Notes: generated by a model from the sequence alone, not told the origin. Shown: positions 33,744 to 62,098, counted from the stretch's first letter. The stretch: DNA of 64,000 bases from Candidatus Woesearchaeota archaeon (GCA_018303545.1 JAGVXY010000009.1:24350-88349), one strand, 5' to 3'. Numbers and translations are program-made.

Positions 33744-33817
33744 GGGCCCATAGCTTAGCTTGGTTGAGCAACTGACTCTTAATCAGTAGGTCAAGGGTTC
33801 AAATCCCTTTGGGCCCG
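33744..33817 (+). tRNA. tRNA-Lys (anticodon CTT)
   Basis: Hand-folded. Acceptor GGGCCCA/TGGGCCC, D-arm with GG, anticodon stem ACTGA/TCAGT, loop CTCTTAA, T-arm AAGGG-TTCAAAT-CCCTT, followed by an oligo-T terminator. Confidence 0.85.
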
Positions 33818-33964
33818 CTTTTTTAGCAATATCTTCAGATTCGTATCTTCCAAGTTTGAAAGGAAAAAAATATTTAGAATTTGTATTCTCGATGTAGTTA
33901 GAAATTTAATAAGAATACCCTCTCTTTTTTATTTGTGCAAAAAATTATATTCTTTTTTATAAAT

Positions 33965-34555
33965 CTAACGCCTTAAATAGGTTATTACTTCTCTAAAACC
34001 TGCCTTCATAAGCAAGGTTTTATCTTTGTTTGCGGGAATATATGTGAACTGCCTATTGTAAGCAATTATTTCTGGCCCATAAGTCATATTGAATGAAAGC
34101 AAATTAATAGAATCCTTCTTGAAGACTAATCTATCTCGTGCGGACACGGCAAAATTAGCTGCTCCAAGAAATAAAGCAATATCTTCTGGATGAAAATGGC
34201 ATATGCCCTGGTATTTTCCCCTACAAGGAAAAAGTTTAACAGTTGATCTAAATCCCTCTCCAATAAGGCCCAGTTTTTTGCCTGTTCCAATATCTAAAAT
34301 ATTGTTAATTTGAACATAATGCTTAAAGCTCTGCTCCTGCAGCAAAGTACCCCATTCTATCTTGCTTTTTTCAGCGGTTTTTTGTAGAATTCCCTCTAAT
34401 CCAAATAAATCCGTAATCTGTACATATTCTGCAAATTCATATCTGCATTCTTCTTTATATTTTTGTATAAGCTGAATTTCTCTGTTAAGTCTGTATACAG
34501 AACAAACTCGAATAGAATTAAAAAGTATACCCAGCATATAACTCAATGGGTCCAT
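33965..34555 (-). CDS. Hypothetical protein (196 aa), last gene of the nucleotidyltransferase-module operon
   Basis: ORF only. Contains CHFHPED...SARD, but the spacing does not fit the JAB HxHx7Sx2D motif. Confidence 0.35.
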   Translation of the reverse strand: MDPLSYMLGILFNSIRVCSVYRLNREIQLIQKYKEECRYEFAEYVQITDLFGLEGILQKTAEKSKIEWGTLLQEQSFKHYVQINNILDIGTGKKLGLIGEGFRSTVKLFPCRGKYQGICHFHPEDIALFLGAANFAVSARDRLVFKKDSINLLSFNMTYGPEIIAYNRQFTYIPANKDKTLLMKAGFREVITYLRR

Positions 34556-34615
34556 TACACATAAAGCAAATGCATTTAGATTAATAAAATATGCCTATGC
34601 AGGGATTCGAAAACC

Positions 34616-34768
34616 TTATTTGATAATTTTTTTATGCTGGGAGCTCCATATTTTATTTGGAGTCTTTTTGACCCATTCAGCATACATATCAATAAACTTC
34701 AGTCTCTCTTCAAAGTTTTGTTCTTTGGATTTTTTCAGTTTATTCAAATCTATATTTAGATTTTTCAT
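34616..34768 (-). CDS. 50-aa small partner protein of the nucleotidyltransferase-like gene (module copy A)
   Basis: Absent from the ORF track (<60 aa). Hand-translated MKNLNIDLNKLKKSKEQNFEERLKFIDMYAEWVKKTPNKIWSSQHKKIIK. ATGA overlap with the upstream gene. Homologous to 61296..61499 (LKFIDMYAEWVKK vs LEYVEFYAEKLKE). Confidence 0.45.
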   Translation of the reverse strand: MKNLNIDLNKLKKSKEQNFEERLKFIDMYAEWVKKTPNKIWSSQHKKIIK

Positions 34769-35364
34769 TTTATATATTTGTTATATTTTTCTTCTATTTT
34801 AAGCTTTCTATTGAATGAATGCATTTTTTCTAAATTCAATTTGTCTTTGAATATTCTAAACAGATATCTTGCATCTTCTATGTCTTTCTCACTGCCCAAA
34901 AATAGTTTATATGATATCTGCAATTCTAATGGAGAAATATAAGTTAAGTTGCCATTTAATATCACCTTAATTCTCGAATTCAATGCCAATTCCCCTATCC
35001 TGTCTTGGGGAAACTTAATTTCCATATTGGGTAAAAATTCGCCCTTAAATGAGAACCTTATCGCATTGTTATTCAAAAGATATTGTTCGTAGGCAGTTTT
35101 TGCATCTTCGGTATTTAAGCATTCAAATTTCTCATATAATTTTAACCACAAATCTTGAAATCTCGTAAAAGTTAATTTTTCAAATAAAAGATCAATGTCC
35201 TCCGATGATCTGCTGCGCCCGAATAATATCGCAACATAACCTGACACTACAACATATTTAATTCCCAAATCATTCAATATTGACACAAACTCTATTGCAA
35301 ATTCATCTAGGGGACTGAGTTCTTTTTTGAATGCAATCTCATTCTCTGAATAATCTAATTCCAT
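34765..35364 (-). CDS. Pol-beta-superfamily nucleotidyltransferase-like protein with helical C-terminal domain (module copy A)
   Basis: VVVSGYVAILFGRSRSSEDIDLLF (a hG[GS]x9-13DhD-type motif). Clear paralog of 61496..62098 across three blocks. Confidence 0.55.
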   Translation of the reverse strand: MELDYSENEIAFKKELSPLDEFAIEFVSILNDLGIKYVVVSGYVAILFGRSRSSEDIDLLFEKLTFTRFQDLWLKLYEKFECLNTEDAKTAYEQYLLNNNAIRFSFKGEFLPNMEIKFPQDRIGELALNSRIKVILNGNLTYISPLELQISYKLFLGSEKDIEDARYLFRIFKDKLNLEKMHSFNRKLKIEEKYNKYIK

Positions 35365-35429
35365 ACATCTTTTAATATTTCAAAAGCAATTTATAAACCT
35401 TGCGCGACCATTTGGCAAGTGAATAGAAA

Positions 35430-35513
35430 CGCCTAGGCAGGGATTCGAACCCCGAAATCCTTGCGGAAACTGGCTCTCAAGGCCAGCGCACTACCAGGTT
35501 ATGCGACCTAGGC
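35430..35513 (-). tRNA. tRNA-Ser (anticodon TGA)
   Basis: Hand-folded from the reverse complement. Acceptor GCCTAGG/CCTAGGC, anticodon stem CTGGC/GCCAG, loop CTTGAGA, long variable arm, T-arm CGGGG-TTCGAAT-CCCTG. 84 nt. Confidence 0.85.
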
Positions 35514-35542
35514 ACTAAAGTAAATCTCCTCAAATAGAATAT

Positions 35543-35809
35543 TTAAACCTTTTTATTTTCAGCTATTTTGAGTATATCCAATTCTTTCATGCCTTTTGCA
35601 ATCAATCTTTTCTTTCCTTCTTTCGCTATCATTTCAAGCTCTTTTATCAGATCTTCTTTTGAGGGAATGTTAATTTTCTTCAGTATTACACTGTCTTTGC
35701 TTCCTATTACTGCAAACACAGTTCCCTCAACCGCATTAAGCTCGCCCCTTATATCTTGGGGAATTACAATCTGCCCTTTCGATGACATTTTTACCGTTTC
35801 AATATCCAT
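35543..35809 (-). CDS. AbrB/MazE/SpoVT-type DNA-binding protein (antitoxin-like)
   Basis: SSKGQIVIPQDIRGEL swapped-hairpin motif. The likely start is the internal Met at 35809, preceded by GGAGGT 7 nt upstream. Confidence 0.65.
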   Translation of the reverse strand: MDIETVKMSSKGQIVIPQDIRGELNAVEGTVFAVIGSKDSVILKKINIPSKEDLIKELEMIAKEGKKRLIAKGMKELDILKIAENKKV

Positions 35810-35828
35810 TTTAAATACCTCCAACAAT

Positions 35829-35847
35829 CTTACTTTCTTACAGTAAG
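35829..35847. repeat. Inverted repeat cttact-N7-agtaag upstream of the AbrB-like gene (between tRNA-Ser and tnpB)
   Basis: Seen directly. Possible operator, or left-end hairpin of the TnpB element. Confidence 0.3.
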
Positions 35848-35997
35848 ACAATAGAATATTTAAAGCTTTTTATTTTAACCATTTAAGTTTAAAGAACATA
35901 ATGCCTTACAATATGCCACAGTTGAGCAACATTATTAAACAAACCACTTGACAAACGCGCACGATTGGTTTATAATATTACTTTTGCATAAATTCAT

Positions 35998-37170
35998 TTG
36001 ATGATAAAAAACTACAAGTTTAGGATTTATCCAAATAAAATGCAGAATAATGCACTGCAAACCACATTGAAACAGGTTAGATTCGTGTACAATAAGCAGC
36101 TAGAACTTAAAATTAAGATATACAAAGATGAAAGCAAAAACCTTTCACAATTTGAATTGAACGATTATTTAATCGAATTAAAGAAAAAATATCCCTTTCT
36201 TCTAAAGCTGCATTCTCAAGTTCTGCAGAATATAAATCAAAGAATCAACTTAGCATTCAAGAGTTTTTACCTCAGGGCAAAAAGAGGCGAGAAGCCAGGG
36301 TTTCCAAGATTTAAGGGCAAGAATAGATATGATTCAATAACTTATCCGCAATCTGGATTTTCATTGAATGACAAGTTATATATTTCAAAAATCGGGGAAA
36401 TAAATATAGTGAAACATAGGTATATCAAAGGAAGGATAAAGACAATGACTATAAAAAGAACTGCTACAAACAAATGGTTTGCATTTTTTACCGCAATGCA
36501 AGAAAATAAACCTAGCAAAATAATCAATAGGCAAATAGTGGGCATAGATCTCGGACTATCTCATTTTTATGCAGATAGCAGAGGGAATATCATAAATAAC
36601 CCAAGATATCTGAGAAACTCTGAGCAGAGATTAATAAAAATTCAAAGGAAACATTCAAGAAAAAGGAAAGGAGGCCATAACAGAAAAAAATCTAGATTAA
36701 AACTAGCTATAATCCATGAAAAGATCACTAACCAAAGGAATGATTTCTTGCATAAGGAATCAAGAAAATTGGCAAATGATTACTCATTCGTTGCTGTTGA
36801 AAAATTATCAATAAAAGATATGTCCAAAAACAGATACTTAGCGAAATCAATTGCAGATGTATCATGGCATAAATTTCTGCAGATGCTTGCTTACAAAGTG
36901 GAAGAAACTGGTGGCAAGCTCGTGAAAATTAATGCTCATGGAACGTCGCAGCATTGTATATGTGGCAATAAAGTAGAAAAGACGTTGGCAATAAGAACCC
37001 ATAGATGCAATAATTGCGGAGTTGAAATTGACAGAGATATTATGTCTGCAATCATTATAGAAAAACTTGCCTTTTTTGGCACTACCGCAGGAAGTGCGGA
37101 AAGTAACGCTTGGGGATATGAAAGGATGCTTTCGTCGGTGAACCAAGAACTCTCTTTGCATTCAAGTTGA
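35998..37170 (+). CDS. tnpB: IS200/IS605-family TnpB (OrfB; RuvC-like RNA-guided nuclease)
   Basis: OrfB N-terminus MIKNYKFRIYPNKMQ, RuvC-like IVGIDLG, zinc finger CICGNKVEKTLAIRTHRCNNCG. 390 aa. Confidence 0.9.
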   Translation: MMIKNYKFRIYPNKMQNNALQTTLKQVRFVYNKQLELKIKIYKDESKNLSQFELNDYLIELKKKYPFLLKLHSQVLQNINQRINLAFKSFYLRAKRGEKPGFPRFKGKNRYDSITYPQSGFSLNDKLYISKIGEINIVKHRYIKGRIKTMTIKRTATNKWFAFFTAMQENKPSKIINRQIVGIDLGLSHFYADSRGNIINNPRYLRNSEQRLIKIQRKHSRKRKGGHNRKKSRLKLAIIHEKITNQRNDFLHKESRKLANDYSFVAVEKLSIKDMSKNRYLAKSIADVSWHKFLQMLAYKVEETGGKLVKINAHGTSQHCICGNKVEKTLAIRTHRCNNCGVEIDRDIMSAIIIEKLAFFGTTAGSAESNAWGYERMLSSVNQELSLHSS

Positions 37171-49336: not shown

Positions 49337-52300
49337 TTACCTGTATGTTTTTACGCGGTATATTACCCAGGCAATTGCTAAGAGTATCAGCAAGATAAGC
49401 AGTATGATTAAGCTTACCTTAGTCCCTGTTCCAATTACCGCACCAGTAATCTGATTTCCTGCATCAGAGATGGCTTCACTATTTAATGCATCAATATCCT
49501 TAGTTTCCTCTGTGTTCGTTGGAATAATCACTGGTTCAGATATTGCAGGTACTATTACAGCAGGCACAGGCACAACAATACTGCTGCCCCCACTGCCGCC
49601 TCCCCCTCCACCGCCGCCAGGCGCCACGTAAGGCGCTGATCCAAATGCCCCAAATAAACTAAAGTGGGTCACATTTGCCCATACATAATCATTTATTGTA
49701 TCTATTCCCTGGTTAGGTTCCAACTGCCAATTTCCTAGAGTTTCATTGAAATAATATATTCTCAATGTATTCTCATCTATCCCTAAGGCATCTAATTCAG
49801 ACTGGTTGTAATAGATTTTTATTAAAGCCCATTCTAATGCCCCTTCTGTGTTTGTATCAATCTCAACATTGATACCTTTCAGATAAGTTAGTCCAGCTGT
49901 TGCCCCAGAAGGATCAACATCTGCGCCAGCAATAGTTACTGTTGATGTTACACTGCTATTTAGATAGAATGTAATATTTGTATCTGCTCCAGGTGCTTCA
50001 ATCTCTGTCATATTATAGGCATCAATCATAGTCTGCAATTGTTCAATTGAAGTCACATTTCCATTCAAATTTATTTCGGGATTATTATCCAAGATGATTG
50101 TGCAGCTTACAAGTTCCAAGACTCCGCCATCAAAAATTATGCCCTGACCATCTGTATCAATGGAAATATTGTTGTTTATGCATTTTGCATTGCCATCAAT
50201 CATCCAATAAACATACATAGGCCTATTATCATAGATACCCCACGCCCCATTGTTATCAAACACACCGTTAGTCAAATGGGCGATAGAATTGCCATCGACA
50301 TACAATCCTGTATTTGCTGGAGGTAGGCAAACATCCATAACACTATCATCATTCGCATTAAATGTAGGATTAATGATAGTCTCTTCAGATGAAACTAGTC
50401 TCATACCCTCACAGTTATATTCTGCTAAGTTATTTTCAAATATATTGCCATTTGAATCAGCGGAGAATATTCCTATTTCATTGTATCGAACTGTATTCTC
50501 ATAGATATTATTGCCTGTTGAACTTCCAATATCAAGGCCATTTCCTATGCCCCCAATGGCAGTTCTTGTATCAAACAAATCACCTGTGTTATTTGCAATA
50601 GTATTGCTGTAGACCTGATTGTTATCGGAATTCGAGAGTCTTATTCCTGCATATAAATTGCCAGTAACTGTATTATCATAAATGACATTCTCTGCAGAAT
50701 ACTTGATATTTATTCCGACTTTTGCATCACGGACCACATTGCCTGAGATTGTGTTGTTATCTGAATTCAGCCTTACATCAATATTGTGCTGGAAAGTACC
50801 TTGTCCATTATTGTTGTGCACATAGTTGTCCAAAATCTGATTATTACTGGACTCCTTCAAATAAATTCCTCTGTCAAAACCCGAAATGGCACAATTCTTA
50901 ACCATAATATCGGATCTGCCTGCAACATAAATCCCATTGCCAGAATCACCGGTAATCGAATGTTTATTGCAGTTCAAGGCAATGTCATCTGCACCAATAT
51001 TTAATCCATTTATTGTTGCACCCTTTCCAGGTAATCTACAGTCAATATCTTTCTCCAATGTCAAATCTTCTTTGATTGTATCTCCGCACTGAACATTGCT
51101 TCCGTCAATAAGATTAACAATGAAAGTATGGCTTGAATCTTCAATTATTGAATTTCCTGCAAGGTCTTCTGCTCCACTTACAGTAATTGTTTCAGTTGTT
51201 AGATCAACTCTTGGCAAAGAATAAACAAAACAGAATGTTTCTGAAAGTTTATCTCTGCAATCATCAACAGTTTGAGCTCCGCCGTCAGGGCTTACTGTGA
51301 TAGCAGGAATATTAGTTATATATTCGCTGAATATTACTCTAATTTCTGGTTGTGAATCCTTATCATATATTACTCCATCAGAGCTTACAGAAACAATAGT
51401 AGGAATTACGGTATCAACAGTGAACCCTGAAACATCAAGGTGCCCAGAATTTCCGGCATTATCTGTAAGTACCAGTGCACAATCCAAATATATGTCATCT
51501 CCTAACGTATTAAAGGTAATAGTCTGTGTTCCTGCAGTATACTCTTGTTCAATTGAGGTGCATGCACCATTAAATTGTAAAAGACCTGCCTCATCTGTGT
51601 TAAAAGTATAATCTGGGGTATTGTCATTGGTATTTACTGGCACAGGAATTATTTCTGTTAAAACCGGTGCAGTATTATCTACAATTACATTTACCTTATT
51701 AGATGAAAAAACATTTCCGGTATTATCATAAGCTTCAACCCATAAGCTATAGGGGCCATCAGCAACAGAAGTTGTATCCCATTCAATGGAATATAAACCA
51801 TTTAAGTCACTATAAATTCCACGGCCTATGAATACATTTGAACCGCCATTCACAAACCAAAAATTAACATAATCGATTTTACTGGCTTTGTCATTAGCAT
51901 CCGCATTGATAGTAATTAGTTTGTTTAAATATTTATTTTCTTCCGGAAAAATTATAGTTGCAACTGGTGCAGTATTATCTAATCTTACATCAATTAATTT
52001 TTCAGGTGTTTCAATATTTCCAGCATTATCAACGGAATAATAAGAAATTGCATAAGTGCCCTCGTCACTTATGGAGATGGAATTTCCAACGATGGGTTTG
52101 GAATCATCAATGGAATAATATGTATTACTGCAACCACTGCCACCAATGCCATCATCACAAGTTAAGGTAATTGTAAATGGATTATTTTGCCAACCACTGG
52201 GAGCGTCATCCGTGGTAGCTGGAGCTGTAACATCTCCTACAACCATCGCACTGCCTCCGCTAACACTAAAAATAATCATAGCTATTAATAAGACTGAAAT

Positions 52301-52381
52301 AAAAATTGATCTTCTATTGTTTGTCATAATCTTCGTCCCCCAACATTTCATTTGATATAATTTTTTCGAAAGCGTAAACAT
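49337..52381 (-). CDS. Giant (1014 aa) surface protein with right-handed parallel beta-helix repeats, Gly-rich stalk and C-terminal TM anchor
   Basis: Signal/TM N-terminus. PbH1-type repeats (NNNGQGTFQHNIDVRLNSDNNTISGNVVRDAKVGINIKYSAENVIYDNTVTGN...). GGGGGGGGSGGSS stalk, then IILLILLILLAIAWVIY followed by RVKTYR. Confidence 0.65.
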   Translation of the reverse strand: MFTLSKKLYQMKCWGTKIMTNNRRSIFISVLLIAMIIFSVSGGSAMVVGDVTAPATTDDAPSGWQNNPFTITLTCDDGIGGSGCSNTYYSIDDSKPIVGNSISISDEGTYAISYYSVDNAGNIETPEKLIDVRLDNTAPVATIIFPEENKYLNKLITINADANDKASKIDYVNFWFVNGGSNVFIGRGIYSDLNGLYSIEWDTTSVADGPYSLWVEAYDNTGNVFSSNKVNVIVDNTAPVLTEIIPVPVNTNDNTPDYTFNTDEAGLLQFNGACTSIEQEYTAGTQTITFNTLGDDIYLDCALVLTDNAGNSGHLDVSGFTVDTVIPTIVSVSSDGVIYDKDSQPEIRVIFSEYITNIPAITVSPDGGAQTVDDCRDKLSETFCFVYSLPRVDLTTETITVSGAEDLAGNSIIEDSSHTFIVNLIDGSNVQCGDTIKEDLTLEKDIDCRLPGKGATINGLNIGADDIALNCNKHSITGDSGNGIYVAGRSDIMVKNCAISGFDRGIYLKESSNNQILDNYVHNNNGQGTFQHNIDVRLNSDNNTISGNVVRDAKVGINIKYSAENVIYDNTVTGNLYAGIRLSNSDNNQVYSNTIANNTGDLFDTRTAIGGIGNGLDIGSSTGNNIYENTVRYNEIGIFSADSNGNIFENNLAEYNCEGMRLVSSEETIINPTFNANDDSVMDVCLPPANTGLYVDGNSIAHLTNGVFDNNGAWGIYDNRPMYVYWMIDGNAKCINNNISIDTDGQGIIFDGGVLELVSCTIILDNNPEINLNGNVTSIEQLQTMIDAYNMTEIEAPGADTNITFYLNSSVTSTVTIAGADVDPSGATAGLTYLKGINVEIDTNTEGALEWALIKIYYNQSELDALGIDENTLRIYYFNETLGNWQLEPNQGIDTINDYVWANVTHFSLFGAFGSAPYVAPGGGGGGGGSGGSSIVVPVPAVIVPAISEPVIIPTNTEETKDIDALNSEAISDAGNQITGAVIGTGTKVSLIILLILLILLAIAWVIYRVKTYR

Positions 52382-52523
52382 TAAATTCGCTCGAACGCAT
52401 ATTAATTTCAGATGAAAATAGGGTGCACCTTAATAAAGTTTTGTATTTATGTTGACTTTACACTAATAACAATAATTTAATACTAAAAATAACCCCTCTA
52501 AAAGAACAAATAAAAAAATAAAT

Positions 52524-53258
52524 TTAATTTAAATTCACACTAAAAGCAACAGGCGCAACAGTCTGAGATTCAGTTGTTATCAAAGATGAAATTTGATCAT
52601 CAGCAATCTCACCGACAAATTTGTATTTACCAATATATTTGTCATACAAATAAACGCCCATCAATCCAGTAGTCTGGCTGTCTTTAGTTATGAATACAGA
52701 TCTTGTGCTCAAAACACCAAAAGGACCATCAAGCTTATTTCCATCAAGTTTCAAAACTTCATAAGGAACAGTATTCTTTGAATAGACAGAAATATACAGC
52801 GCTTCTTGGCCTTCATTGTATTTTGGTGCAATTACTCTGTCTCTTGCATAAGCCATGCCCATTTTTGTTGAAAGCACAACTCTCTCTCCAGGTAAGCCCC
52901 CATTTTTCTTAAGATTGATCAAAACTTCATCTTTAAGCGAATAGCCGTTCTTTCCTGCAGGATTCAATATATGATCCAATTTATCAGTAAAATCAGGAAG
53001 GTACACAGCAACTTTTGACCAGCTTATGTCTTTGCCATTAAGTATAATTTCATCATGCTCAACAGCAGCATTTCTCATGCCAAGTCCAATCAAAAGATTA
53101 TCTGAAAGGCCCCAGTTTGTCTTTATATTGTCTGAGTATATCTGCATCTCAAGTCCAAAAGTTGAGTTATCAACTTTGGCATCAGAAAATGGAGCAAAAG
53201 CAGAAATAACCAGCACAATTGCGGCTAATATTGTTAGTTTAATATTAAAGGTTTTCAT
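52524..53258 (-). CDS. Secreted hypothetical protein (signal peptide)
   Basis: MKTFNIKLTILAAIVLVISAFAPFSDA signal. Same strand as the giant-protein cluster. Confidence 0.4.
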   Translation of the reverse strand: MKTFNIKLTILAAIVLVISAFAPFSDAKVDNSTFGLEMQIYSDNIKTNWGLSDNLLIGLGMRNAAVEHDEIILNGKDISWSKVAVYLPDFTDKLDHILNPAGKNGYSLKDEVLINLKKNGGLPGERVVLSTKMGMAYARDRVIAPKYNEGQEALYISVYSKNTVPYEVLKLDGNKLDGPFGVLSTRSVFITKDSQTTGLMGVYLYDKYIGKYKFVGEIADDQISSLITTESQTVAPVAFSVNLN

Positions 53259-53367
53259 GGGGTTGGATATTAAGTCCTATTTAAATACTTTATGGTAGTT
53301 ACAATCAGTAATTCAGGTTTAAGGCAGAAATGAAGTTATCCATAGTTAAAAACTAAATTAAAAAAAT

Positions 53368-56300
53368 CTAAATTTCTTCTTCAGTATAGATTATATACTC
53401 GCCTAAATTGCCATAAATATCCTTGCACTTAACATAAAACTTGTCATAACTCAATGAAGTCTCATGCACTTTGGAATTATCTCCAGTCATCTTATTCCCT
53501 TCCCCAAATCTGAAATTTTTGTCTCCAGATTCGCAGGAGCAGTCTTCATCAGTCTCAATATATAATGTTCCCTCTGTGAAAATATACATAAGTTTCGGCG
53601 CAGTAGTATCTGCCGTAACCCTAAAGGTAGTATTAGTATTGACTTGGTTTCCTGCTGCATCTCTGCAGGCCACATAATATTTATATTCAGCCATAGGCAA
53701 AATTAATGGCTGTTCATGCAGTGTTTCATTTGTTTTGAAGAAATAAACCATATTCTCAAAAACAGTATCCTTATCAGCGAAAGCGCACATTGCCTTTCCA
53801 TTATCTGCTCCTTTCTCAGTAAGCACTTTTAATGTAACATTATTTGTGTATAATTCTCCTGAAGGCCCAATAGAAACAACTTTCAATGCTTCAGTTCCTT
53901 TCAAGCTAAATTTATAGCTGTCTTCATTAAAGTTTTTTGACATATCTTCACATTTAAAATAATAATTAGTCTCTTGATTTGGTTTTATTCCTGTTAATTT
54001 TGTTTTGCATTCATAGAGCCCACCAAACACTCCGGCTATATCATAAGCTGCGGTGGCGCATTGCATGCTTGTATTCATTGAAATATAATCAACATCATTG
54101 AAATCCCACTTGCATCTCGCAGGCTCACTTACATATACACTTAAATCAGTATCATTTTTATTAGCTGCAATCATTGCTCCATTAGTTAGACTTGTCTGTT
54201 CAATTACCGGCGCTGTTAAATCCGGTGAAGGATCTATCGAGAATCTTACAAAGTAATCATTCTCATTTGCATTTCCCGCTCCGTCCTGGCATCTTATATA
54301 TAGAGTTACAGTATTTCCGTTTACTAATTGTATAACTTGGTTTCCATCTGTATAGCTTGCATTAGGCAGCATTAATTGCGATGACTGATTGTATCTGTAT
54401 AAACTATCCTGCACATAGAATGCAGGCATATCATTATATTTAACAGAATGATTTGCGCTGATTTTGCACTGCGCAGGTTCATTAGTTCTAATTCCAAATG
54501 TTATTGGTTGGAATGCTTTTACTTTTGGCTGTATTTCAAAGCCTGGATTTCCTTGGTAAGTTATTTCTCTTAATGTGTATCCCTCTTTTAATTTTTCAGG
54601 CCATGGTTTTATTATTGGTGCGTTGACATCATTTGGATGCATATTTACGCAAGTCTCATTGTTTCCAGTTCCTGGATTTAATAATGTGCAGTATTTTCCT
54701 AAAGATTTGCATCTGTATTCAGAGCAAGGTTTTATTGGATCCTTATTGCATTCTTCACAGTCTCTTCCACCATCAGGCGCTTCCCATGGTGCGCAGTTTA
54801 CAACAATAGTTTTTGTTTTTTCTGAAGCTGCAACAATATCAACAACTTGATAGATTGTGTATATCCATAACAGTGTATTAAATAATTGCATAAATCCACC
54901 TGCTGCCCCCCCAGTAGAAGAATATTTCGAAACGGATGTTGCCCCTTTCGCATCTGCAGCACTTGAAGCTACTTGATTACCTAAACTTCCATCAGCATTT
55001 ATAGCATACTTATACCATCCATTTTGTGTATTAGTGTAGAGAAAATCTTTTCCAATAAAAACATTGTCTGTACCAAGGTTTCTAATGCCATTAGCCAATT
55101 CTTCTTGTCCTATTGAATTTAATCCTAAATCATAAGTTATTGCTGCCTGTCCAGTCAACCCAAAAGCCTCAGTTCTAACACCAGTTAAAGTAGATTGTTT
55201 GCTAACCATTGCGGCAGAAGATTTTGGTCCGAGGGCGAAACCACTAAATATCTTGTCAATATTCGACCAACCCCATCCCGCGTGACCCCAAGAGGCAATA
55301 CCAGTAAGAGCCATCCATGAAAGTATCATCCATCCGCCTTTCCTATCAAGTTCATCCAACATTCCAGGTTTCTGGTCTTTATATTTATCAGCAGGGAATT
55401 GCAATTCCAAAAATTTAGTAACTTCAGATTTAGTTAATTTCAATCCAGATTCAGTAAACACACCTAAATAATTAAAGTAAGCTCCGCAGTCTCCCTGCGC
55501 AATGCAAGAGGTACTTTGAGCTAGTAGCCAATCTTTTTCTAAGCAGTGACAGTTTCTTACGCATTTCCATTTGTCGCTTATCCCTCCAACAGCAGGAATA
55601 TATTTCCCAATCAATGAAGTCCATCCGCCAGCAGCATAAGTAACCTCACATTTTGATGAAGCTTGTTCACATGCATCAATATTTGTTCCGCCAGTTGGAT
55701 TAGTGCTAGAACTTGAAGTTGAAGTCGCAGCCGCCGCAGCATTTCCCGAACCAGATTGACTAGAACCGGTAGTAAAGCTAGCAGAACCTAAATCATCACC
55801 CCAAAAAGTAAATCCAGGAGGAACCATAGGCACACACTTTCCAGGAGAATCTTTGCTCACTTCATTTCCAGTAGATTTAACGACAGCATCTCCCCACCAA
55901 TAGCAGTCCCTATATTGCAGTTCGGTGCAGCATTTGTATGCATCTTCCAATTTATCAACATAAGAATTCATCGCATCTTCAGAATCAATCTCTTCAAACG
56001 TGGGATCTTCTACATTGCATGCAGCGCAATCAGCCCATCTGTTTTCTCTGCATCTACCTTCAATATATTCTCCTCGGGAAGCAAGCAATGTAAACGAAGT
56101 GCCGGTAGAAAGAGGCTCTGAACCTAAAATACCCTGAACGCAAATCTGTTCCCTATAATCTGCGCAAGGTTCAACAGTAGTCTCACCGTTTATACAAATC
56201 TGTCTGAACTGTCTCGAACCTACAGCATCTCTGCCCCAGCCAGTAGCTCCATCATATAAACACCATGACTCACCATTCTTTTTGTCTCCACCTGAAGCAG

Positions 56301-57108
56301 GAGAACTAGTTTCTTTGTAAACACTTGAGCAGTCAACAGAGTTGCATTTAGCATTTGCTTCATCAACAGCCTTGCATAACGTACCCGAAGCATAATCGCA
56401 GTCTTCAGCGATGTCTTCTGGATTTCCGCATGAATCAAACCAATAAACATCTTCTTTGTAACAAGCTTTATGATGATGAGAAGCGCAGTCGCAGCTTAAT
56501 TTTTTATCTGAACAAAAAGTATCCTTGTGAAAACCTATAGAACTTCCAATATCTGCACTCTGTTCTCCGCAGCTTTCTCTAGCAGTCCATGAGCAGGTAT
56601 CTTGAGAAACGCAGCAGCCCATTTCATTATTTCTGCAAGAATCAACGCATTCTTGTTCAGAAGCAGCATCTTTAAAATCCATCTGCACAAAAGGAAATTT
56701 TTGAGTTTCAGTTTTACAGCGCGTTTGTGTCACATAAGAGCATTCAGTTCCAATAGTGCAGCATCCTCTGGTGCATTTAGGATCATTGCACTCAGGAGAA
56801 GCAAGCCAAACAATTCCTTCGCCTTTGCTTTGCGCAAGAGACCTTGGAACATTTTTGTAGCATACTCCAACTTCTTCATCAACGCCGCATCCTAACTGGC
56901 AGTAACTTGTTTGTTCGCAAGCAGTAGGCGCAGAATTGAAATTAGCATCGCAACTCTTAGCATCAGTATACATGCAATACTCTCCATTAACGGTTTTCTC
57001 GCAGCACCTTAAATCTTGCACAACCGCTTCAGCAGAAGGAGTATACACTGAGAAAATGGAAAAAATTATTACTGTACATAAAAACATCGATGTTATTTTC
57101 TTTATCAA
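53368..57108 (-). CDS. Giant (about 1240 aa) cysteine-rich surface protein with internal hydrophobic segments (paralog 1)
   Basis: TTG start in the ORF track; a likely ATG at 57087 gives a clean signal peptide MFLCTVIIFSIFSVYTPSAEA. About 50 Cys in the first 330 aa. S/T/G linker, two or three hydrophobic segments, then a beta-rich C-terminal domain about 450 aa long. Paralogous to 58030..61089. Confidence 0.6.
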   Translation of the reverse strand: MIKKITSMFLCTVIIFSIFSVYTPSAEAVVQDLRCCEKTVNGEYCMYTDAKSCDANFNSAPTACEQTSYCQLGCGVDEEVGVCYKNVPRSLAQSKGEGIVWLASPECNDPKCTRGCCTIGTECSYVTQTRCKTETQKFPFVQMDFKDAASEQECVDSCRNNEMGCCVSQDTCSWTARESCGEQSADIGSSIGFHKDTFCSDKKLSCDCASHHHKACYKEDVYWFDSCGNPEDIAEDCDYASGTLCKAVDEANAKCNSVDCSSVYKETSSPASGGDKKNGESWCLYDGATGWGRDAVGSRQFRQICINGETTVEPCADYREQICVQGILGSEPLSTGTSFTLLASRGEYIEGRCRENRWADCAACNVEDPTFEEIDSEDAMNSYVDKLEDAYKCCTELQYRDCYWWGDAVVKSTGNEVSKDSPGKCVPMVPPGFTFWGDDLGSASFTTGSSQSGSGNAAAAATSTSSSSTNPTGGTNIDACEQASSKCEVTYAAGGWTSLIGKYIPAVGGISDKWKCVRNCHCLEKDWLLAQSTSCIAQGDCGAYFNYLGVFTESGLKLTKSEVTKFLELQFPADKYKDQKPGMLDELDRKGGWMILSWMALTGIASWGHAGWGWSNIDKIFSGFALGPKSSAAMVSKQSTLTGVRTEAFGLTGQAAITYDLGLNSIGQEELANGIRNLGTDNVFIGKDFLYTNTQNGWYKYAINADGSLGNQVASSAADAKGATSVSKYSSTGGAAGGFMQLFNTLLWIYTIYQVVDIVAASEKTKTIVVNCAPWEAPDGGRDCEECNKDPIKPCSEYRCKSLGKYCTLLNPGTGNNETCVNMHPNDVNAPIIKPWPEKLKEGYTLREITYQGNPGFEIQPKVKAFQPITFGIRTNEPAQCKISANHSVKYNDMPAFYVQDSLYRYNQSSQLMLPNASYTDGNQVIQLVNGNTVTLYIRCQDGAGNANENDYFVRFSIDPSPDLTAPVIEQTSLTNGAMIAANKNDTDLSVYVSEPARCKWDFNDVDYISMNTSMQCATAAYDIAGVFGGLYECKTKLTGIKPNQETNYYFKCEDMSKNFNEDSYKFSLKGTEALKVVSIGPSGELYTNNVTLKVLTEKGADNGKAMCAFADKDTVFENMVYFFKTNETLHEQPLILPMAEYKYYVACRDAAGNQVNTNTTFRVTADTTAPKLMYIFTEGTLYIETDEDCSCESGDKNFRFGEGNKMTGDNSKVHETSLSYDKFYVKCKDIYGNLGEYIIYTEEEI

Positions 57109-57878
57109 CTAGGTTCACCCTCTACAAAAAACTGGAACATTAATCCATCTGTAGTCTGTGTTCTTTTTATCTGGTATAATTTATCAGGATAAGGCCGGTG
57201 TTTGTAAATCATATATTTCCCCGTTTTTGAAAGCATGTATATAAGCTGATCAAAATCTCCAAATTCAGTTTCGACATTTATTATGTCCTGTGAAACATCA
57301 TACAAATCGCCTAAAGGCAAATTAACCATAGTATTGAATTTATTTTCGGTAATTGTAATATCTTTCTGTGTCAGCACAACAGGGTAAGTTACATCAACTT
57401 GCACATTTTCCTTATTTATAATTACCGTTGCCTTTGGCATTCCCTGTCCGCTTACAGTTACGCCTGAAAATATTGATGAAAAAGAATTTACATCTATGCA
57501 TTTCTGCAGATTAAAATTTATCACCTGTGAAAGGTCTTTTTCCATATCTGAAATTGTAAGCATTTTATTATAGCATGTAGGCTGACCCTTAATATTATAG
57601 CAAAGATAGCTTACAGTAGTCCCATTAAATAATTTGTAAGATTTTGGAGTCAGCTGTCCGCCTTTCAAAGCAATCTCTCTTATTGGCCCATTAGCCGATT
57701 CATCAACACATTCTTGAATATGTTCTCTTATTGGCCCAAATTCTGTCTGCACTGTCTCTATAGTAATCGTTCCTGGCAGAATTCTTTCTCTAAATGCCAA
57801 AGTCAGGCCTATTACCCCTACTATTAGAATCCCTAATATAATATAGATTGTTACTTGACCTCTTTTTCCCATTTCCAT
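57105..57878 (-). CDS. Pilin-like protein with class III signal peptide (MEMGKRG|QVTIYIILGILIVGV) inside the giant-protein cluster
   Basis: KRG-Q motif plus a long hydrophobic helix. Lies immediately upstream of giant paralog 1. Confidence 0.5.
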   Translation of the reverse strand: MEMGKRGQVTIYIILGILIVGVIGLTLAFRERILPGTITIETVQTEFGPIREHIQECVDESANGPIREIALKGGQLTPKSYKLFNGTTVSYLCYNIKGQPTCYNKMLTISDMEKDLSQVINFNLQKCIDVNSFSSIFSGVTVSGQGMPKATVIINKENVQVDVTYPVVLTQKDITITENKFNTMVNLPLGDLYDVSQDIINVETEFGDFDQLIYMLSKTGKYMIYKHRPYPDKLYQIKRTQTTDGLMFQFFVEGEPS

Positions 57879-58029
57879 TTTCCCTGAATACCCCTTTCTA
57901 TTTAAATATTTTGATTATGAATATACGATTATTTCAGTCATTGCATTGCCGTATTGATCGATGCATTTCACATGATAAGCGGTTGTTGATAGTGGCGCTC
58001 CATGCAATGTTGTATTTATTCCAGACATA

Positions 58030-61000
58030 TCATATCCCTGACCAAGTCATATTTGAATATTGGCATGTTGTTATTTCGCTCAGTTCAATTCTAAGTTCTG
58101 TGTCTCTGAATATTCCTAATAATAAAGGCGCCGAAGTATCTACAGTTATTCTAAATTTAGTTGCATTGCTGGCAACATTTCCGGCAATATCTGTACATTC
58201 AAAATTATAATTATATTCCCCTAACTTTAATCCTTGCAGTAATTGTCTGTGCACTGAGCTTGAAGTTTCCATCATCTCAATCATGCCTCTTCCTTTTTCA
58301 GCAAAAGAGCATATTGCTTTTCCGCCTTCAGCTCCTCCGAAAGTTCCTAATTTTAATTCTGCGTTTGTTGAATATATCTCTTTTCCCATTGTGGGTTCAA
58401 CAAAAGTTATTTTTAATTCATCAGTGCCAATTACAGAAATTGGATAGCTCTGCTGGTTTGTATTTCCATATCTGTCCTGGCATCTTATATAATACTGATT
58501 TGCTCCTTTTGAAATATTTGGTAAAATTATTAGTGCATTAAATCCAAAATTAGAATAGCTATTAGCGCTCAATCCGCCATACTGCATCAGTTCATAATCT
58601 GTGTCAATTGTATCGACTCTGCAAGTTCCAGGCTCATTTAAAGTTACTGTTAAAGGTGAGTAAGTTACATTAAAAGGTATGAACGCTCCATCTTTCAGGC
58701 TTACATTTTCTATCACCGGGGCTGTTAAATCTGGGCCTTCTTTTGTTTTATATTTTATTACATAATATATGGGATTATCATTTCCTTGATAGTCTGAACA
58801 TTTTATTGCATAACTATATTCTGTATTAGGTTCCATTACGGAAATAGTCATTGTGTGATTTAATCTGAACATCACATCTTCAAAGTAACTTGCAGGCATC
58901 TCTTCGAACTTCTTTGGATATTGTATATCTGCATTCGTATCTACTTTGCATTGTGCAGGCTCTGAAGTCTCAATGCCAAAAGTTATTGGCTTGAATGGAT
59001 CAACTAAAGGTAAAATATTATATCCGGATTGTGCTCCATCTTGAATTTGATATTCTTTATTTAAAACTTCCAACCAAGGTTTTATCATCGGTGCATTAAC
59101 ATCATTCGGATGCGCTACAACACAAGTCTCATTTCCTGTTCCTTCATTTACTAATTTGCAGTCCGCTCCTAAAGATCTGCATTTATATTCAGAACATACT
59201 TTGAAAGGCCCCGTGCATTCCTCGCATTTATTTTCTTTAGGTGCCGTCCACGGAGCGCAGATAGAGGTAAAAATATGTTCATGCTGCTCACTTCCTGAAG
59301 TTACAAGCCAGGTAATTATTAAAATTATCGCTAAAACAATCCAACCCCAAATGGGAATTACACCAAGCCATCCTGAACCAGCCACAACACTCCCCAGAGC
59401 GCCCTTAGCTGCCGCAAGAGCAAGAATACTAATTGTTCCACCTGTAAACGTAACTGCCCCAACCGTTACAGTTGCTGTTGCAAAAACCAAGATATAAATA
59501 GAAATTAAAGTAGCAGCAATTCCACCATAAGCTCCAAATTGATTGATAGTTCCTATTGTGTTCATTTCACTTAAAACAGCATCACTAATGCTACCCAAAA
59601 CATCCATCATAACACTTAAGCCACCATGAACTCCGTAAGTTGCCCAATAATTCCATAAATATTCAGGAACACCACTATATTCTAAATTGCCATCAGCTGA
59701 TCGGACCATCCATTTTGGAGGGCCGCTAGGATCCCAATTATCTTGATAAGCGGATTTTAAATCAAAAGAATCCAAACCGCCTTTGACTAATTCAACATTA
59801 TATGCTGGACCGCAATCTCCCTTGCTCTTGCAATATAATAAAACATTATCTGCAAATTTTTGCTGCAAGGTTTCTTGATTAATTTCATGCCAGTCTGCAA
59901 AAGTATTTTTTTTATAATAAAAATAATGGGCTTCAATATTTGCTTCTGAGCAAGTTTCAGCAACAGTTTCATCTTCAGTATCCCAGAACTTAAATCCTTC
60001 AGGAACAGTAGTTATAGATGTATTCCAATTTTCAATGCAAGCCGCAGCAGCATAAGATCCTCTGTCAGCGCTAGCTTTTCCCTGCAGACAAATTTCTTCT
60101 CTATAATCTTTGCACTCTTCATACACTTCTTCACCATTTATACATAAGTGTCTATAGTGTCTAGAGCCAACAGCATCAGTCCAATTTCCAGTAGGTCCTT
60201 CATAAATGCACCAAGATTCTCCATTCATCCTAAAGCCACCAAGTCTAGCATCATGAACATTCTTCTCATCGGTATAAGTAGAAGTGCAATCTAAAGAAGA
60301 GCAAGAAGCCGTATTGTTATCTATCTGCTTACAAAGTGTCCCTTTGGCATAATCACAATCATCTGCAATCCCTTCCATGTTTCCGCATGAATCAAAATAA
60401 TAAACATCTTCACCGACACATTGAGTTTTATATTGTTTCGTACAGTCACAACCTAAACTTGAATCTGAACAGTAAGTATTAAAATTAAATTGAATACCTT
60501 GACTAGTCAAGGCTTGTCGGCTTTCACAGTCATCCCTAGTTGTCCAAGAGCACTCCCCGAGACCTAGAGAGCAGCACCCATGGTCTTGCCCCTGGCAGTA
60601 GCCAACACATTCTAATTCAGAAGTGGCATCCCTAAAATCCATCGATAAATAAGGAAAATTAGAAACAGCATTTTTACATTCTAACTGGGTAGACATAAAG
60701 CATTGGTCTCCAATTACACAGCAGTTTTTTTGGCATTCAGGAACTTGGCAAAGTGGATCAGCACTAAATAATCCGTCTTTAGAAGCGCAAGTCGGCTGCG
60801 GTGTATTTTTATAGCATGCCCCATCATTTTTATCATAGCAGCAACCTAATTTGCAGAAAGAAGAAGCCTCACAGGACGAAGCGGAAACCCTGTATCCTGG
60901 ATTGCACTGGTCCTGCGTTGTATACTGGCAAGTCTCTCCGCCCTTAGTAATCTCACAGCAGACTTTATTCGCATCCCCATTCGTATTCTCATCTTCAGCA

Positions 61001-61089
61001 TTGACTTCGGAAACAAAATAAGAAAAAGCAACAATGGCAATAATCATAATAAAGCACATGCTCACCGCTTTTTCTTTTAAAAATATCAT
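58030..61089 (-). CDS. Giant (1019 aa) cysteine-rich surface protein with internal multi-TM block (paralog 2)
   Basis: Signal peptide. Cys-rich N-terminal domain alignable to paralog 1 (VCCEITKGGETCQY... vs RCCEKTVNGEYCMY...). Conserved CAPWTAPKENKCEECTGPFKVCSEYKCRSLG module. About 75-aa hydrophobic block. Confidence 0.6.
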   Translation of the reverse strand: MIFLKEKAVSMCFIMIIAIVAFSYFVSEVNAEDENTNGDANKVCCEITKGGETCQYTTQDQCNPGYRVSASSCEASSFCKLGCCYDKNDGACYKNTPQPTCASKDGLFSADPLCQVPECQKNCCVIGDQCFMSTQLECKNAVSNFPYLSMDFRDATSELECVGYCQGQDHGCCSLGLGECSWTTRDDCESRQALTSQGIQFNFNTYCSDSSLGCDCTKQYKTQCVGEDVYYFDSCGNMEGIADDCDYAKGTLCKQIDNNTASCSSLDCTSTYTDEKNVHDARLGGFRMNGESWCIYEGPTGNWTDAVGSRHYRHLCINGEEVYEECKDYREEICLQGKASADRGSYAAAACIENWNTSITTVPEGFKFWDTEDETVAETCSEANIEAHYFYYKKNTFADWHEINQETLQQKFADNVLLYCKSKGDCGPAYNVELVKGGLDSFDLKSAYQDNWDPSGPPKWMVRSADGNLEYSGVPEYLWNYWATYGVHGGLSVMMDVLGSISDAVLSEMNTIGTINQFGAYGGIAATLISIYILVFATATVTVGAVTFTGGTISILALAAAKGALGSVVAGSGWLGVIPIWGWIVLAIILIITWLVTSGSEQHEHIFTSICAPWTAPKENKCEECTGPFKVCSEYKCRSLGADCKLVNEGTGNETCVVAHPNDVNAPMIKPWLEVLNKEYQIQDGAQSGYNILPLVDPFKPITFGIETSEPAQCKVDTNADIQYPKKFEEMPASYFEDVMFRLNHTMTISVMEPNTEYSYAIKCSDYQGNDNPIYYVIKYKTKEGPDLTAPVIENVSLKDGAFIPFNVTYSPLTVTLNEPGTCRVDTIDTDYELMQYGGLSANSYSNFGFNALIILPNISKGANQYYIRCQDRYGNTNQQSYPISVIGTDELKITFVEPTMGKEIYSTNAELKLGTFGGAEGGKAICSFAEKGRGMIEMMETSSSVHRQLLQGLKLGEYNYNFECTDIAGNVASNATKFRITVDTSAPLLLGIFRDTELRIELSEITTCQYSNMTWSGI

Positions 61090-61295
61090 AAAGAGAAAAG
61101 AGAGTTATAGAATATTTAAAGTTTACTCAATCTCATCAACAATCGCATTCATCGGTCTAACTTTCTGCACTGTTCCTTTCTTGCCGCAGAATGGGCAGAC
61201 AGATTCAAAACGATTTCTTCTGAAATTGTATCCGCAGCCAACGCATTGATAGCTTATTTTTTCTTCCATGTTAAAAAATAAATCTTTCTCATTTA

Positions 61296-61499
61296 TTAAT
61301 CTTTCTCAAGCAACCCGATAGCTTTCAAGTATTTTCTTGCATTAGTCTTGAAATCTTCGCCGAACATATTCTTAAATAGGCTCTGGCTTGACTTCAATTG
61401 CGATTCAATCAATATCTTTTGTTGCCTAAACAGAGAGCCATCTTCCTTAAGTTTCTCGGCATAGAATTCAACATATTCTAAATCATTCATAGGCCTCAT
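61296..61499 (-). CDS. 67-aa small partner protein of the nucleotidyltransferase-like gene (module copy B)
   Basis: ATGA overlap with the upstream gene. Homologous to the 50-aa ORF at 34616..34768. Confidence 0.45.
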   Translation of the reverse strand: MRPMNDLEYVEFYAEKLKEDGSLFRQQKILIESQLKSSQSLFKNMFGEDFKTNARKYLKAIGLLEKD

Positions 61500-62098
61500 T
61501 TTAATTCATCCCTTATTATAATTTCATACCTTTTAAAGTTTTCTTCTTTAATCAGGTCAGAAAAGAAAGTTCTCAAATGTTTTGCATCTTCCATATCTTT
61601 TTTGCCAGCCAGTATTATTTCCTTATATAATATTTCAAATTCAATAGGAGGAATCTTAAATTCAAAATCTCCAACTTTAATTTTCTGGGGATGAGAATAT
61701 TCAAAAGATTTGGCCTTCTTGCTCTTATCAAATGGGACCAGTTCTATATTAGGATACATCTTATTAATTTCAGCAAATCTTACGCTATTCATATTTTTAA
61801 TATAAGGATAAACTTCCGTAGAATTATCGCCCTGATAGCACCAAAATTTATTTTCAATCAAATCATTAAATAGAGAAACAAACTTATTTTCATTCATTAT
61901 AGACACTATAATATCAACATCTTCCGTGCCTCTTGCTCTCCCTGTGGAAATGCTTACAAAACCGCTTACAATCAAATAATCCGCATGTTTTTTTAGTACT
62001 TTCAAAAACTTTTTTACAAAGAGATCTAATTCAGTCAATTCCCTGTCAATTACAATTATTCCTCCTTCAACAGAATAGCCTTTCATAAAAAGAATCAA
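61496..62098 (-). CDS. Pol-beta-superfamily nucleotidyltransferase-like protein (module copy B)
   Basis: YLIVSGFVSISTGRARGTEDVDIIV. Paralog of 34765..35364 (IPPIEFEILYKEIILAGKKDMEDAKHL vs ISPLELQISYKLFLGSEKDIEDARYL). Confidence 0.55.
   Translation of the reverse strand: MILFMKGYSVEGGIIVIDRELTELDLFVKKFLKVLKKHADYLIVSGFVSISTGRARGTEDVDIIVSIMNENKFVSLFNDLIENKFWCYQGDNSTEVYPYIKNMNSVRFAEINKMYPNIELVPFDKSKKAKSFEYSHPQKIKVGDFEFKIPPIEFEILYKEIILAGKKDMEDAKHLRTFFSDLIKEENFKRYEIIIRDELK

Follow-up and report, generated by a model that had tools for sequence, protein, structure and literature searches.

A two-gene nucleotidyltransferase/DUF8150 module of archaea, possibly related to the MenAT1 and AbiE toxin-antitoxin systems, and its insertion as a miniature cassette at a tRNA-Ser gene of a Candidatus Woesearchaeota archaeon

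Minimal nucleotidyltransferases (NTases) of about 100 amino acids (aa) encoded together with HEPN proteins of about 110-150 aa that carry an R-x4-6-H motif make up the MNT-HEPN modules, and integrative elements devoid of an integrase are known at the 3' ends of tRNA and other genes (cis-mobilisable elements and tRNA-targeting islands). Here we consider a two-gene module that occurs twice, as copy A and copy B, in a stretch of 64,000 nucleotides of a Candidatus Woesearchaeota archaeon (GCA_018303545.1, JAGVXY010000009.1:24350-88349), hereafter the window, and in which a large gene for an NTase-like protein of about 200 aa is followed by a small gene for a protein of 50 or 67 aa. The closest described system is MenAT1 (Rv0078B-Rv0078A) of Mycobacterium tuberculosis, in which the toxin MenT1 attaches cytidine monophosphate (CMP) to the 3' ends of tRNAs. 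Its antitoxin MenA1, the product of the upstream gene, is helical, has 68 aa and lacks a DNA-binding domain (PMC10435456); it neutralises MenT1 by causing the toxin to auto-phosphorylate T39, and conservation of this phospho-acceptor Ser/Thr throughout the DUF1814 superfamily has been reported (PMC11375011). For the DPANN archaea, AbiE was found to be enriched in a recent survey with PADLOC models (PMC12988326), and Makarova et al. described a toxin-antitoxin-like MNT-HEPN gene that is kept in housekeeping contexts (PMC6393860). The literature that we searched contained no mention of DUF8150, the Pfam family of the 50-aa protein, no work characterising DUF2204 or DUF6036, and nothing on an obligate pairing of DUF8150 with an NTase, on fusions of the two or on their cassette context. 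What is already known is thus the small family, as a Pfam entry without a function, and the NTase family has no model.

In both copies the large gene comes first and its stop codon overlaps the start codon of the small gene by four nucleotides (ATGA), as read at the junctions ...ATA AAA TGA / ATG AAA AAT of copy A and AAA TGA / ATG of copy B (Table 1). A first-pass annotation, made from the DNA sequence without database searches, had described this coupling and had regarded the two loci as paralogous, and both points are borne out by open reading frame (ORF) calls, by the reading of the junctions and by BLASTP, which aligns the large proteins over 145 aa with 34% identity (E 4e-21) and marks them as paralogues. 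According to tblastn, the 64-kb window holds exactly two copies of the large gene, and a TATA-like sequence, TATTTATATA, lies about 20 nt upstream of that of copy B. The two small proteins give no BLASTP match with each other, but the motif that had been proposed as common to both is real by profile-profile alignment of the A-type (27 sequences) and B-type (4 sequences) families (hhalign E 4.8e-5, probability 68%, 34 columns), the copy B protein differing from DUF8150 by the lack of the N-terminal helix and by a C-terminal extension. The idea that the 50-aa partner was novel and absent from the ORF track has to be abandoned, as GenBank already annotates both small ORFs (MBS3107463.1, J4468_00970, for the 50-aa protein and J4468_01105 for the 67-aa protein) and as precomputed annotation assigns PF26477.1 (DUF8150) to the 50-aa protein of the window (P0241) and to its orthologues. 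No DUF8150 match is recorded for the copy B small protein, and the B-type small proteins escape the Pfam model.

Scans of all four proteins against Pfam (E<=10), NCBIfam, PADLOC and PHROGs gave no meaningful match, and phmmer of the large protein against the PDB gave nothing. Sub-threshold Pfam matches appear among 102 members of the large-protein family, to DUF2204 (25/102), AbiEii (14/102, best E 9.6e-4) and DUF6036 (13/102). DUF2204 and DUF6036 belong to the same NTase neighbourhood as this family; the window proteins themselves match neither. When a profile of the 102 sequences was compared with the PDB, the best sequence match was MenT1 (E 0.0022), the segment RFT39RD41VD of MenT1 being aligned with the family motif R-a-t-E-D-i-D, so that S54 of the copy A protein falls on T39 and D56 on D41. 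An AlphaFold model of the copy A large protein, made from 64 sequences (predicted local distance difference test score, pLDDT, 95.4; predicted template modelling score, pTM, 0.89), has a pol-beta NTase fold followed by a MenT-type helical C-terminal region, with helices at 146-197 where the first-pass annotation had placed a helical domain. The closest solved structure is that of MenT1, a proven toxin, and the nearest neighbours of the fold comprise toxins and resistance enzymes rather than housekeeping NTases.

The residues of interest in the copy A protein are S41-G42, R50, R52, S54, E55, D56, D58, E115, K153, D161 and D164. The NTase signature that had been pointed out is present, in the order S41-G42-x13-D56-x-D58, that is, with SG rather than the GS first given. 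The motif G[RK]x[RK]x[ST][DE]DxD is found in 353 of 368 full-length members, all 353 of which have a Ser or Thr at the position equivalent to T39 (S54 in copy A, Thr in copy B), and E115, K153, D161 and D164 are invariant or nearly so. The spacing from D56 to K153 is 97 residues against 96 from D41 to K137 in MenT1, and the placing of D161 and D164 fits D152, these being comparisons of spacing along the sequences. From profile, motif, model and sub-threshold matches together, the large protein is therefore a distant MenT/AbiEii relative with an active site that looks intact; it is an NTase of the pol-beta type and represents a family without a model in the vicinity of AbiEii/DUF1814, DUF2204 and DUF6036.

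Compared with MenAT1, the module shares the [ST]-x-D-x-D motif, the bicistronic arrangement, an NTase of about 200 aa and a short (50-68 aa) helical partner without a DNA-binding domain, and, as far as spacing indicates, probably also the layout with a later Lys and an acidic D-x-x-D region. By contrast, identity with MenT/AbiEii proteins is only 13-15%, the archaeal family is far more conserved, is sometimes fused to its partner and was found here only in archaea, and the partner is a DUF8150 protein encoded downstream, whereas MenA1 belongs to another family and is encoded upstream. With MNT-HEPN modules (MntA-HepT), which are abundant in the same genomes, it shares a pol-beta-type NTase and a helical partner, but the archaeal NTase is double the size of an MNT, includes a helical C-terminal domain of its own and is structurally nearest to toxins and not to antitoxin MNTs. 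The earlier statement that the architecture is not that of MNT-HEPN is thus well founded: the 50-67-aa partner has no HEPN match and the 199-aa NTase no NTP_transf_2 or Polbeta match.

Using a scan of one genome per GTDB species, we confirmed at least 443 relatives of the large protein, the best 80 of which are used for the locus counts given below. A word-indexed search returned more than 2,000 relatives of the copy A large protein, the best 120 of them nearly all 197-203 aa long, 52-63% identical and without a Pfam domain, and 668 relatives of the copy B large protein, with 63-73% identity among the matches listed. In the contigs of these relatives the next gene is always an ORF of 50-53 aa (A-type, annotated as PF26477 DUF8150) or of 61-69 aa (B-type), with an overlap of 4-7 nt. 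Mechanical ORF calling showed, in 78/80 loci, a small ORF where the large gene stops, mostly with the ATGA overlap, and a hidden Markov model (HMM) of the small protein found a match directly 3' of the large gene in 80/80 of these species-level loci, far outside the genome studied; in the 64-kb window the same HMM matched the two proposed ORFs and nothing else. The small ORFs are therefore not due to chance. The 80 loci are labelled as Woesearchaeota, Pacearchaeota, Nanoarchaeota, Aenigmarchaeota, Micrarchaeota, Iainarchaeota, Altiarchaeota, Thermoplasmatota, Thaumarchaeota and Methanoperedens (including the reference assembly of M. nitroreducens), and the pair is also present, at 31-39% identity, in 13 records of haloarchaeal (mega)plasmids. 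A profile search with the small protein recovered DUF8150 proteins from many cultured haloarchaea, among which the pair itself has a patchy distribution over genera and often resides on (mega)plasmids, its cultivable carriers including Halorussus, Natrinema, Haladaptatus and Haloplanus. Within the searches made, the large-protein family is confined to archaea. Several paralogous pairs occur within single genomes, no conserved third gene adjoins the pair in our survey of neighbourhoods, and its commonest neighbours are MNT-type genes. Natural fusions of the large and small proteins occur in two lineages, P0356 (272 aa, in four contigs) and P0376 (276 aa), which fall into separate 50%-identity clusters, and these support the view that the two proteins form a physical and functional unit. 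At the level of sequence, these data show a conserved and translationally coupled gene pair, with a MenT1-like NTase, in many archaeal phyla.

Some members of the family deviate from this picture. The large gene at L079:3001-3579 has an in-frame stop after 72 codons and looks decayed, as do the matches in two haloarchaeal plasmids (H12 and H13) that cover only 38-39% of the protein, and the small gene at L074:3596-3934(+) codes for a 112-aa protein with two DUF8150 repeats in tandem. A gene of the metallo-beta-lactamase fold (Lactamase_B), with tRNase-Z-like or Anti-Pycsar-like matches, lies beside the pair at the unrelated loci L003, L090/L091 and L106/L107; with 2 occurrences among 136 adjacent genes it does not amount to a conserved neighbour. 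A 912-aa protein of the fungus Mycena polygramma (P0257), placed in a 90%-identity cluster with 53-aa Methanoperedens DUF8150 proteins, is probably a contamination or a clustering artefact.

The mobility of copy A, which the first-pass annotation had missed, is the most informative feature of the locus. Copy A lies next to an intact tRNA-Ser gene, and the only other copy of the 3' end of this tRNA within the window stands on the far side of the pair. Using the flanking 196-aa ORF as an anchor in public assemblies, we recovered empty alleles from three independent assemblies, L095 (NCBI GCA_036722875.1), L096 (ENA ERZ28563784) and L098 (Logan SRR3989309), and a fourth contig, L097, in which the pair is present (filled allele). 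ERZ27254847 is a sample with the filled allele. The three empty alleles have the same neighbourhood as the window, namely TnpB, the AbrB-like gene, tRNA-Ser, the 196-aa ORF and ribosomal-protein genes, with flanks that are 99.5-100% identical to it, and the NTase/DUF8150 pair is missing. The alignment blocks between empty and filled alleles stop at 35429 and 34611, which correspond to the repeat copies, the sequence of the empty site being ...CCTGCCTAGGCGT|ATATTTTATT. Of the two repeats of the filled allele, the left one is exactly that of the host tRNA and the right one differs from it at 4 positions; as the flanks are 99.5-100% identical, the right copy must therefore have arrived with the element and is att-like. 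For the same reason, a fresh target-site duplication was rejected as an explanation of the two repeats of copy A.

Copy A is therefore an insertion of about 836 bp that consists of an att-like copy of the tRNA 3' end, a TATA-like box and two genes, and the pair alone has been inserted as a discrete, strain-variable and repeat-flanked unit. A precise empty site and att-like repeats, one of them element-borne, are what is expected of a site-specific integrative element. The position of the TATA-like box suggests that the cassette has its own promoter and would give a leaderless or near-leaderless transcript. Neither of the two genes matches a recombinase family (Pfam, NCBIfam, PADLOC, PHROGs); a trans-acting enzyme was not searched for. 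The proposal that the pair duplicates as a unit can be maintained and extended to movement as a unit. The proposed location in accessory islets holds for copy A and fails for copy B, which is present in all six strain places shown.

Flanking repeats are not restricted to copy A. We looked for direct repeats scoring 17 or more, with a copy on either side of the pair no farther than 400 bp from it, and used same-length intervals shifted within the loci as a control, and found them around 19/80 pairs against 2/145 shifted intervals (Fisher p 7e-8); when upstream and downstream flanks of different loci were paired, the maximum score was 17. The repeats measure 17-154 bp and enclose segments of 750-1,100 bp, the right repeat often beginning 0-5 nt past the stop codon of the small gene. 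At L050, L048 and L029 only 1-2 nt separate the left repeat from the ATG, and the distances of the repeats to the start and stop codons are 1-4 nt. At L042, in a metagenome-assembled genome (MAG) of Nitrososphaera, the pair stands between an intact tRNA-Ile gene and a perfect 25-nt copy of its 3' end. In about half of the cases the repeat corresponds to the 3' end of the upstream same-strand gene (GlmS, an HsdS-like C-terminus, a membrane protein), the others being intergenic; at the glmS site, where the gene has GATase and SIS domains, the repeat encodes ...DKPRNLAKSVTVE* and its two copies differ at synonymous positions only. Adjacency to a tRNA is not general, as a tRNA lies directly upstream only in the window and at L042, and downstream at L027, and no recombinase is encoded within any of the repeat-flanked cassettes. 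Further empty sites were not obtained from a metagenome pattern scan for L050 (0 matches) or with a neighbour protein of the glmS locus, which gave filled alleles only. The repeats are ambiguous at L013, with four copies in the locus, and at the hsdS-related Methanoperedens loci L056 and L089.

These cassettes resemble integrase-less integrative elements by their insertion at gene 3' ends, the replacement 3' end that they carry, their direct repeats and the precise empty site in sister strains. They differ by their size of about 0.75-1.1 kb with two genes only, by the same cargo at many targets across phyla, by highly variable repeat lengths (17-154 bp) and by the lack of any recombinase found.

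At two loci the repeats have features of their own. An 86-bp repeat of L013 that contains a hairpin recurs at 1837, 2831, 3765 and 6043, is extended by a TATA-like box on one side, and sets apart segments of the size of a gene, the NTase/DUF8150 pair being one, an arrangement that looks array-like and is reminiscent of integron cassettes. In the Thaumarchaeota loci L053 (3843-4025) and L055, the downstream repeat, a membrane-protein 3' end, is 97-99% identical to the upstream one although the NTases of the two genomes are only 76% identical, which points to re-integration on several occasions, to gene conversion or to a selected small ORF that extends across the repeat.

Taking these data together, we give a probability of roughly one half to the reading of the pair as a MenAT1/AbiE-like two-component NTase module of the toxin-antitoxin kind, with copy A carried on a miniature integrative cassette. 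Under this reading the NTase would add nucleotides to RNA 3' ends, most likely to tRNA acceptor ends as do MenT1, MenT3 and MenT4, and would arrest translation, and the small protein would bind the NTase and keep it inactive, perhaps by covering the catalytic site, by making the NTase phosphorylate its own conserved Ser/Thr (S54 in copy A, Thr in copy B), or by both. The small protein is expected to be at most equimolar, because the enzyme gene comes first and translation is coupled; a partner that acts catalytically like MenA1, by inducing auto-phosphorylation, would tolerate equimolar or lower amounts. The pair would then serve addiction or abortive infection and so help the cassette to persist and to spread; integration and excision may be due to an integrase acting in trans or to homology-directed (Campbell-type) recombination at the 3' end that the cassette carries, with a predicted circular junction of the excised form in which ...CATAGGC is joined to TTTCTATTCAC. 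Copy B could be an old, fixed and possibly domesticated paralogue. Nucleotidylation of the small protein by the NTase was not retained as a lead, because no Ser, Thr or Tyr is kept across the A-type and B-type small proteins.

Several observations weigh against such a module. The order of the genes, enzyme first, is the reverse of menA1-menT1 and abiEi-abiEii; the small protein shows no detectable similarity to MenA1 when its profile is compared with the PDB, where it gives chance matches only (for example, the tail of ribosomal S6), and Pfam AbiEii at its curated threshold and the PADLOC AbiE models, those behind the DPANN survey cited above, miss the large protein. The small protein is basic (median isoelectric point, pI, 9.5) and the NTase acidic (median pI 6.2), which is the opposite of many RNA-targeting toxin/antitoxin pairs, and an antitoxin covalently fused to its toxin, as P0356 and P0376 would be, is likewise awkward. 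Conservation of the two proteins is unusually high (45-60% identity across phyla, 64-73% for copy B orthologues), and copy B stands between truD and a zinc-ribbon gene in 6/6 strain places shown (of 16 contigs with the zinc-ribbon gene). No integrase was identified for the cassette. An association with viruses was rejected, there being no PHROG match and no relative in phage records or IMG/VR contigs. An AlphaFold prediction of the P0356 fusion without an alignment (pLDDT 35) was uninformative on the complex of the large and small parts.

Several of these points lend support to the main rival, which we regard as unlikely but to be taken seriously, namely that the pair is a non-toxic, obligate two-subunit holoenzyme with a cellular role, for example in the maintenance or tagging of RNA or tRNA 3' ends, with DUF8150 supplying RNA or substrate binding and with mobility as an incidental trait. 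A basic partner of an acidic catalytic subunit, natural fusions that imply a 1:1 function in cis, high conservation with near-constant lengths across phyla, a copy B that is fixed and syntenic in every strain contig examined, the many housekeeping genes among the neighbours and the precedent of MNT-HEPN genes in housekeeping contexts of DPANN (PMC6393860) would all suit such an enzyme. It fits poorly with the dispensability of copy A in near-identical strains, the scattered distribution among haloarchaeal genera, often on (mega)plasmids, the several paralogous pairs per genome, the decay of some copies, the lack of a conserved functional neighbour, and structural relatives that are toxins and resistance enzymes and not housekeeping NTases.

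The tight fit of the cassette around the pair raises the question of whether the two proteins move it themselves, the NTase performing phosphoryl transfer and the small basic protein acting like an excisionase, for integration and excision at 3' ends of genes for tRNAs and proteins. The polymorphic unit indeed comprises nothing but an att-like repeat, a promoter-like box and two genes, the repeats are tight around the pair alone in 19/80 loci of unrelated phyla and abut the start and stop codons at L050, L048 and L029, and recombination directionality factors are also small basic proteins. The absence of a known recombinase domain from both proteins leaves room for this idea. We nevertheless consider it highly improbable: we know of no pol-beta-fold protein that is a recombinase, the active-site motifs, including the Ser/Thr, match those of the tRNA-modifying MenT toxins, about 75% of the loci lack repeats, and copy B is immobile. 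The targets (tRNAs, glmS, hsdS, intergenic DNA) and the repeat lengths (17-154 bp) are also so varied that carried homology, with recombination in trans or by the host, accounts for them better than a single dedicated site-specific enzyme would. If true, the idea would imply a so far undescribed class of recombinase and a new kind of autonomous mobile element without a tyrosine, serine, DDE, HUH or Cas1 recombinase. Resistance genes are commonly found on mobile cassettes, and 3 of 102 family members have sub-threshold matches to Pfam Aminoglyc_resit, which would agree with a small-molecule NTase for resistance or detoxification of the kind of ANT(2'')-Ia or LnuA, to which the small protein would be an accessory. 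This explanation seems to us less probable still, as the strict Ser/Thr-x-D-x-D motif and the obligate small partner are MenT-like and not ANT/Lnu-like, and as aminoglycoside or lincosamide targets seem unlikely in the habitats of DPANN and Thaumarchaeota.

Should the toxin-antitoxin reading be correct, the module would be an archaeal branch of MenT/AbiE that is invisible to Pfam and PADLOC, with a reversed gene order and a new partner family, and DUF8150 would gain a function. Because the module occurs in cultivable haloarchaea, the predictions on toxicity, tRNA modification and auto-phosphorylation are directly testable. Independently of function, a two-gene cassette without a recombinase at tRNA-Ser, tRNA-Ile, glmS and other 3' ends is an unusually minimal mobile unit, and its polymorphism between strains that are >99.5% identical bears on the spread of toxin-antitoxin-like genes in the reduced genomes of DPANN.

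Table 1. Positions, in the 64,000-nucleotide window, of the two gene pairs, of the elements of the copy A cassette and of neighbouring features
Feature	Position	Strand	Description
tRNA-Lys(CTT)	33744-33818	+	far side of the 196-aa ORF
196-aa ORF	33965-34555	-	directly downstream of the cassette
Right repeat copy	34593-34615	-	GGTTTTCGAATCCCTGCATAGGC; 23-nt diverged tRNA-Ser 3' end, starts right after the stop codon of the small gene
Copy A small gene	34616-34768	-	50-aa basic helical protein, Pfam DUF8150 (PF26477)
Copy A large gene	34765-35364	-	199-aa MenT1-like pol-beta-type nucleotidyltransferase
Left cassette junction	35365-35428	-	stretch missing from the empty-site alleles
TATA-like box	35390-35397	-	TTTATAAA; about 29 nt before the copy A ATG, from reading of the sequence
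Left direct-repeat copy	35429-35449	-	tRNA-Ser 3' end, integration site; repeat family D4
tRNA-Ser(TGA)	35429-35514	-	intact (ARAGORN); same sequence as in the empty-site allele
AbrB/MazE-like ORF	35543-35851	-	102 aa, beside tRNA-Ser
TnpB gene	35998-37170	+	OrfB_IS605/Cas12f-like
Three very large ORFs	49337-61089	-	1014, 1246 and 1019 aa
48-aa ORF	61123-61269	-	directly downstream of copy B
Copy B small gene	61296-61499	-	67 aa; distant DUF8150 homologue
Copy B large gene	61496-62086 (ATG, GenBank start, 196 aa) or to 62098 (TTG, 200 aa)	-	

Around copy A, the 196-aa ORF has no Pfam or PHROGs family, carries a CHFHPED motif and is identical in 14 public contigs; with tRNA-Lys on its far side, the segment 33819-35428 lies between two tRNA genes. 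The AbrB/MazE-like ORF matches Pfam MazE_antitoxin (E 5e-4) and a PHROG antitoxin family, with no toxin gene adjacent, and the TnpB gene has no TnpA beside it; both genes are outside the cassette, since they are also present in the empty-site alleles.

Around copy B, the 48-aa ORF, which follows an oligo-T tract, has two CxxC pairs (zinc-ribbon-like) and keeps its synteny with copy B in all strain contigs examined. Elsewhere in the window, four ORFs match Polbeta/NTP_transf_2 (minimal NTases of the MNT type), in agreement, for the NTase half only, with the earlier remark that it contains MNT-HEPN pairs, and two ORFs match Big_13 Ig-like domains. The 1019-aa ORF is Cys-rich, looks secreted or membrane-associated and varies in length between strains, with homologues of 1050 and 1060 aa in L100 and L101.

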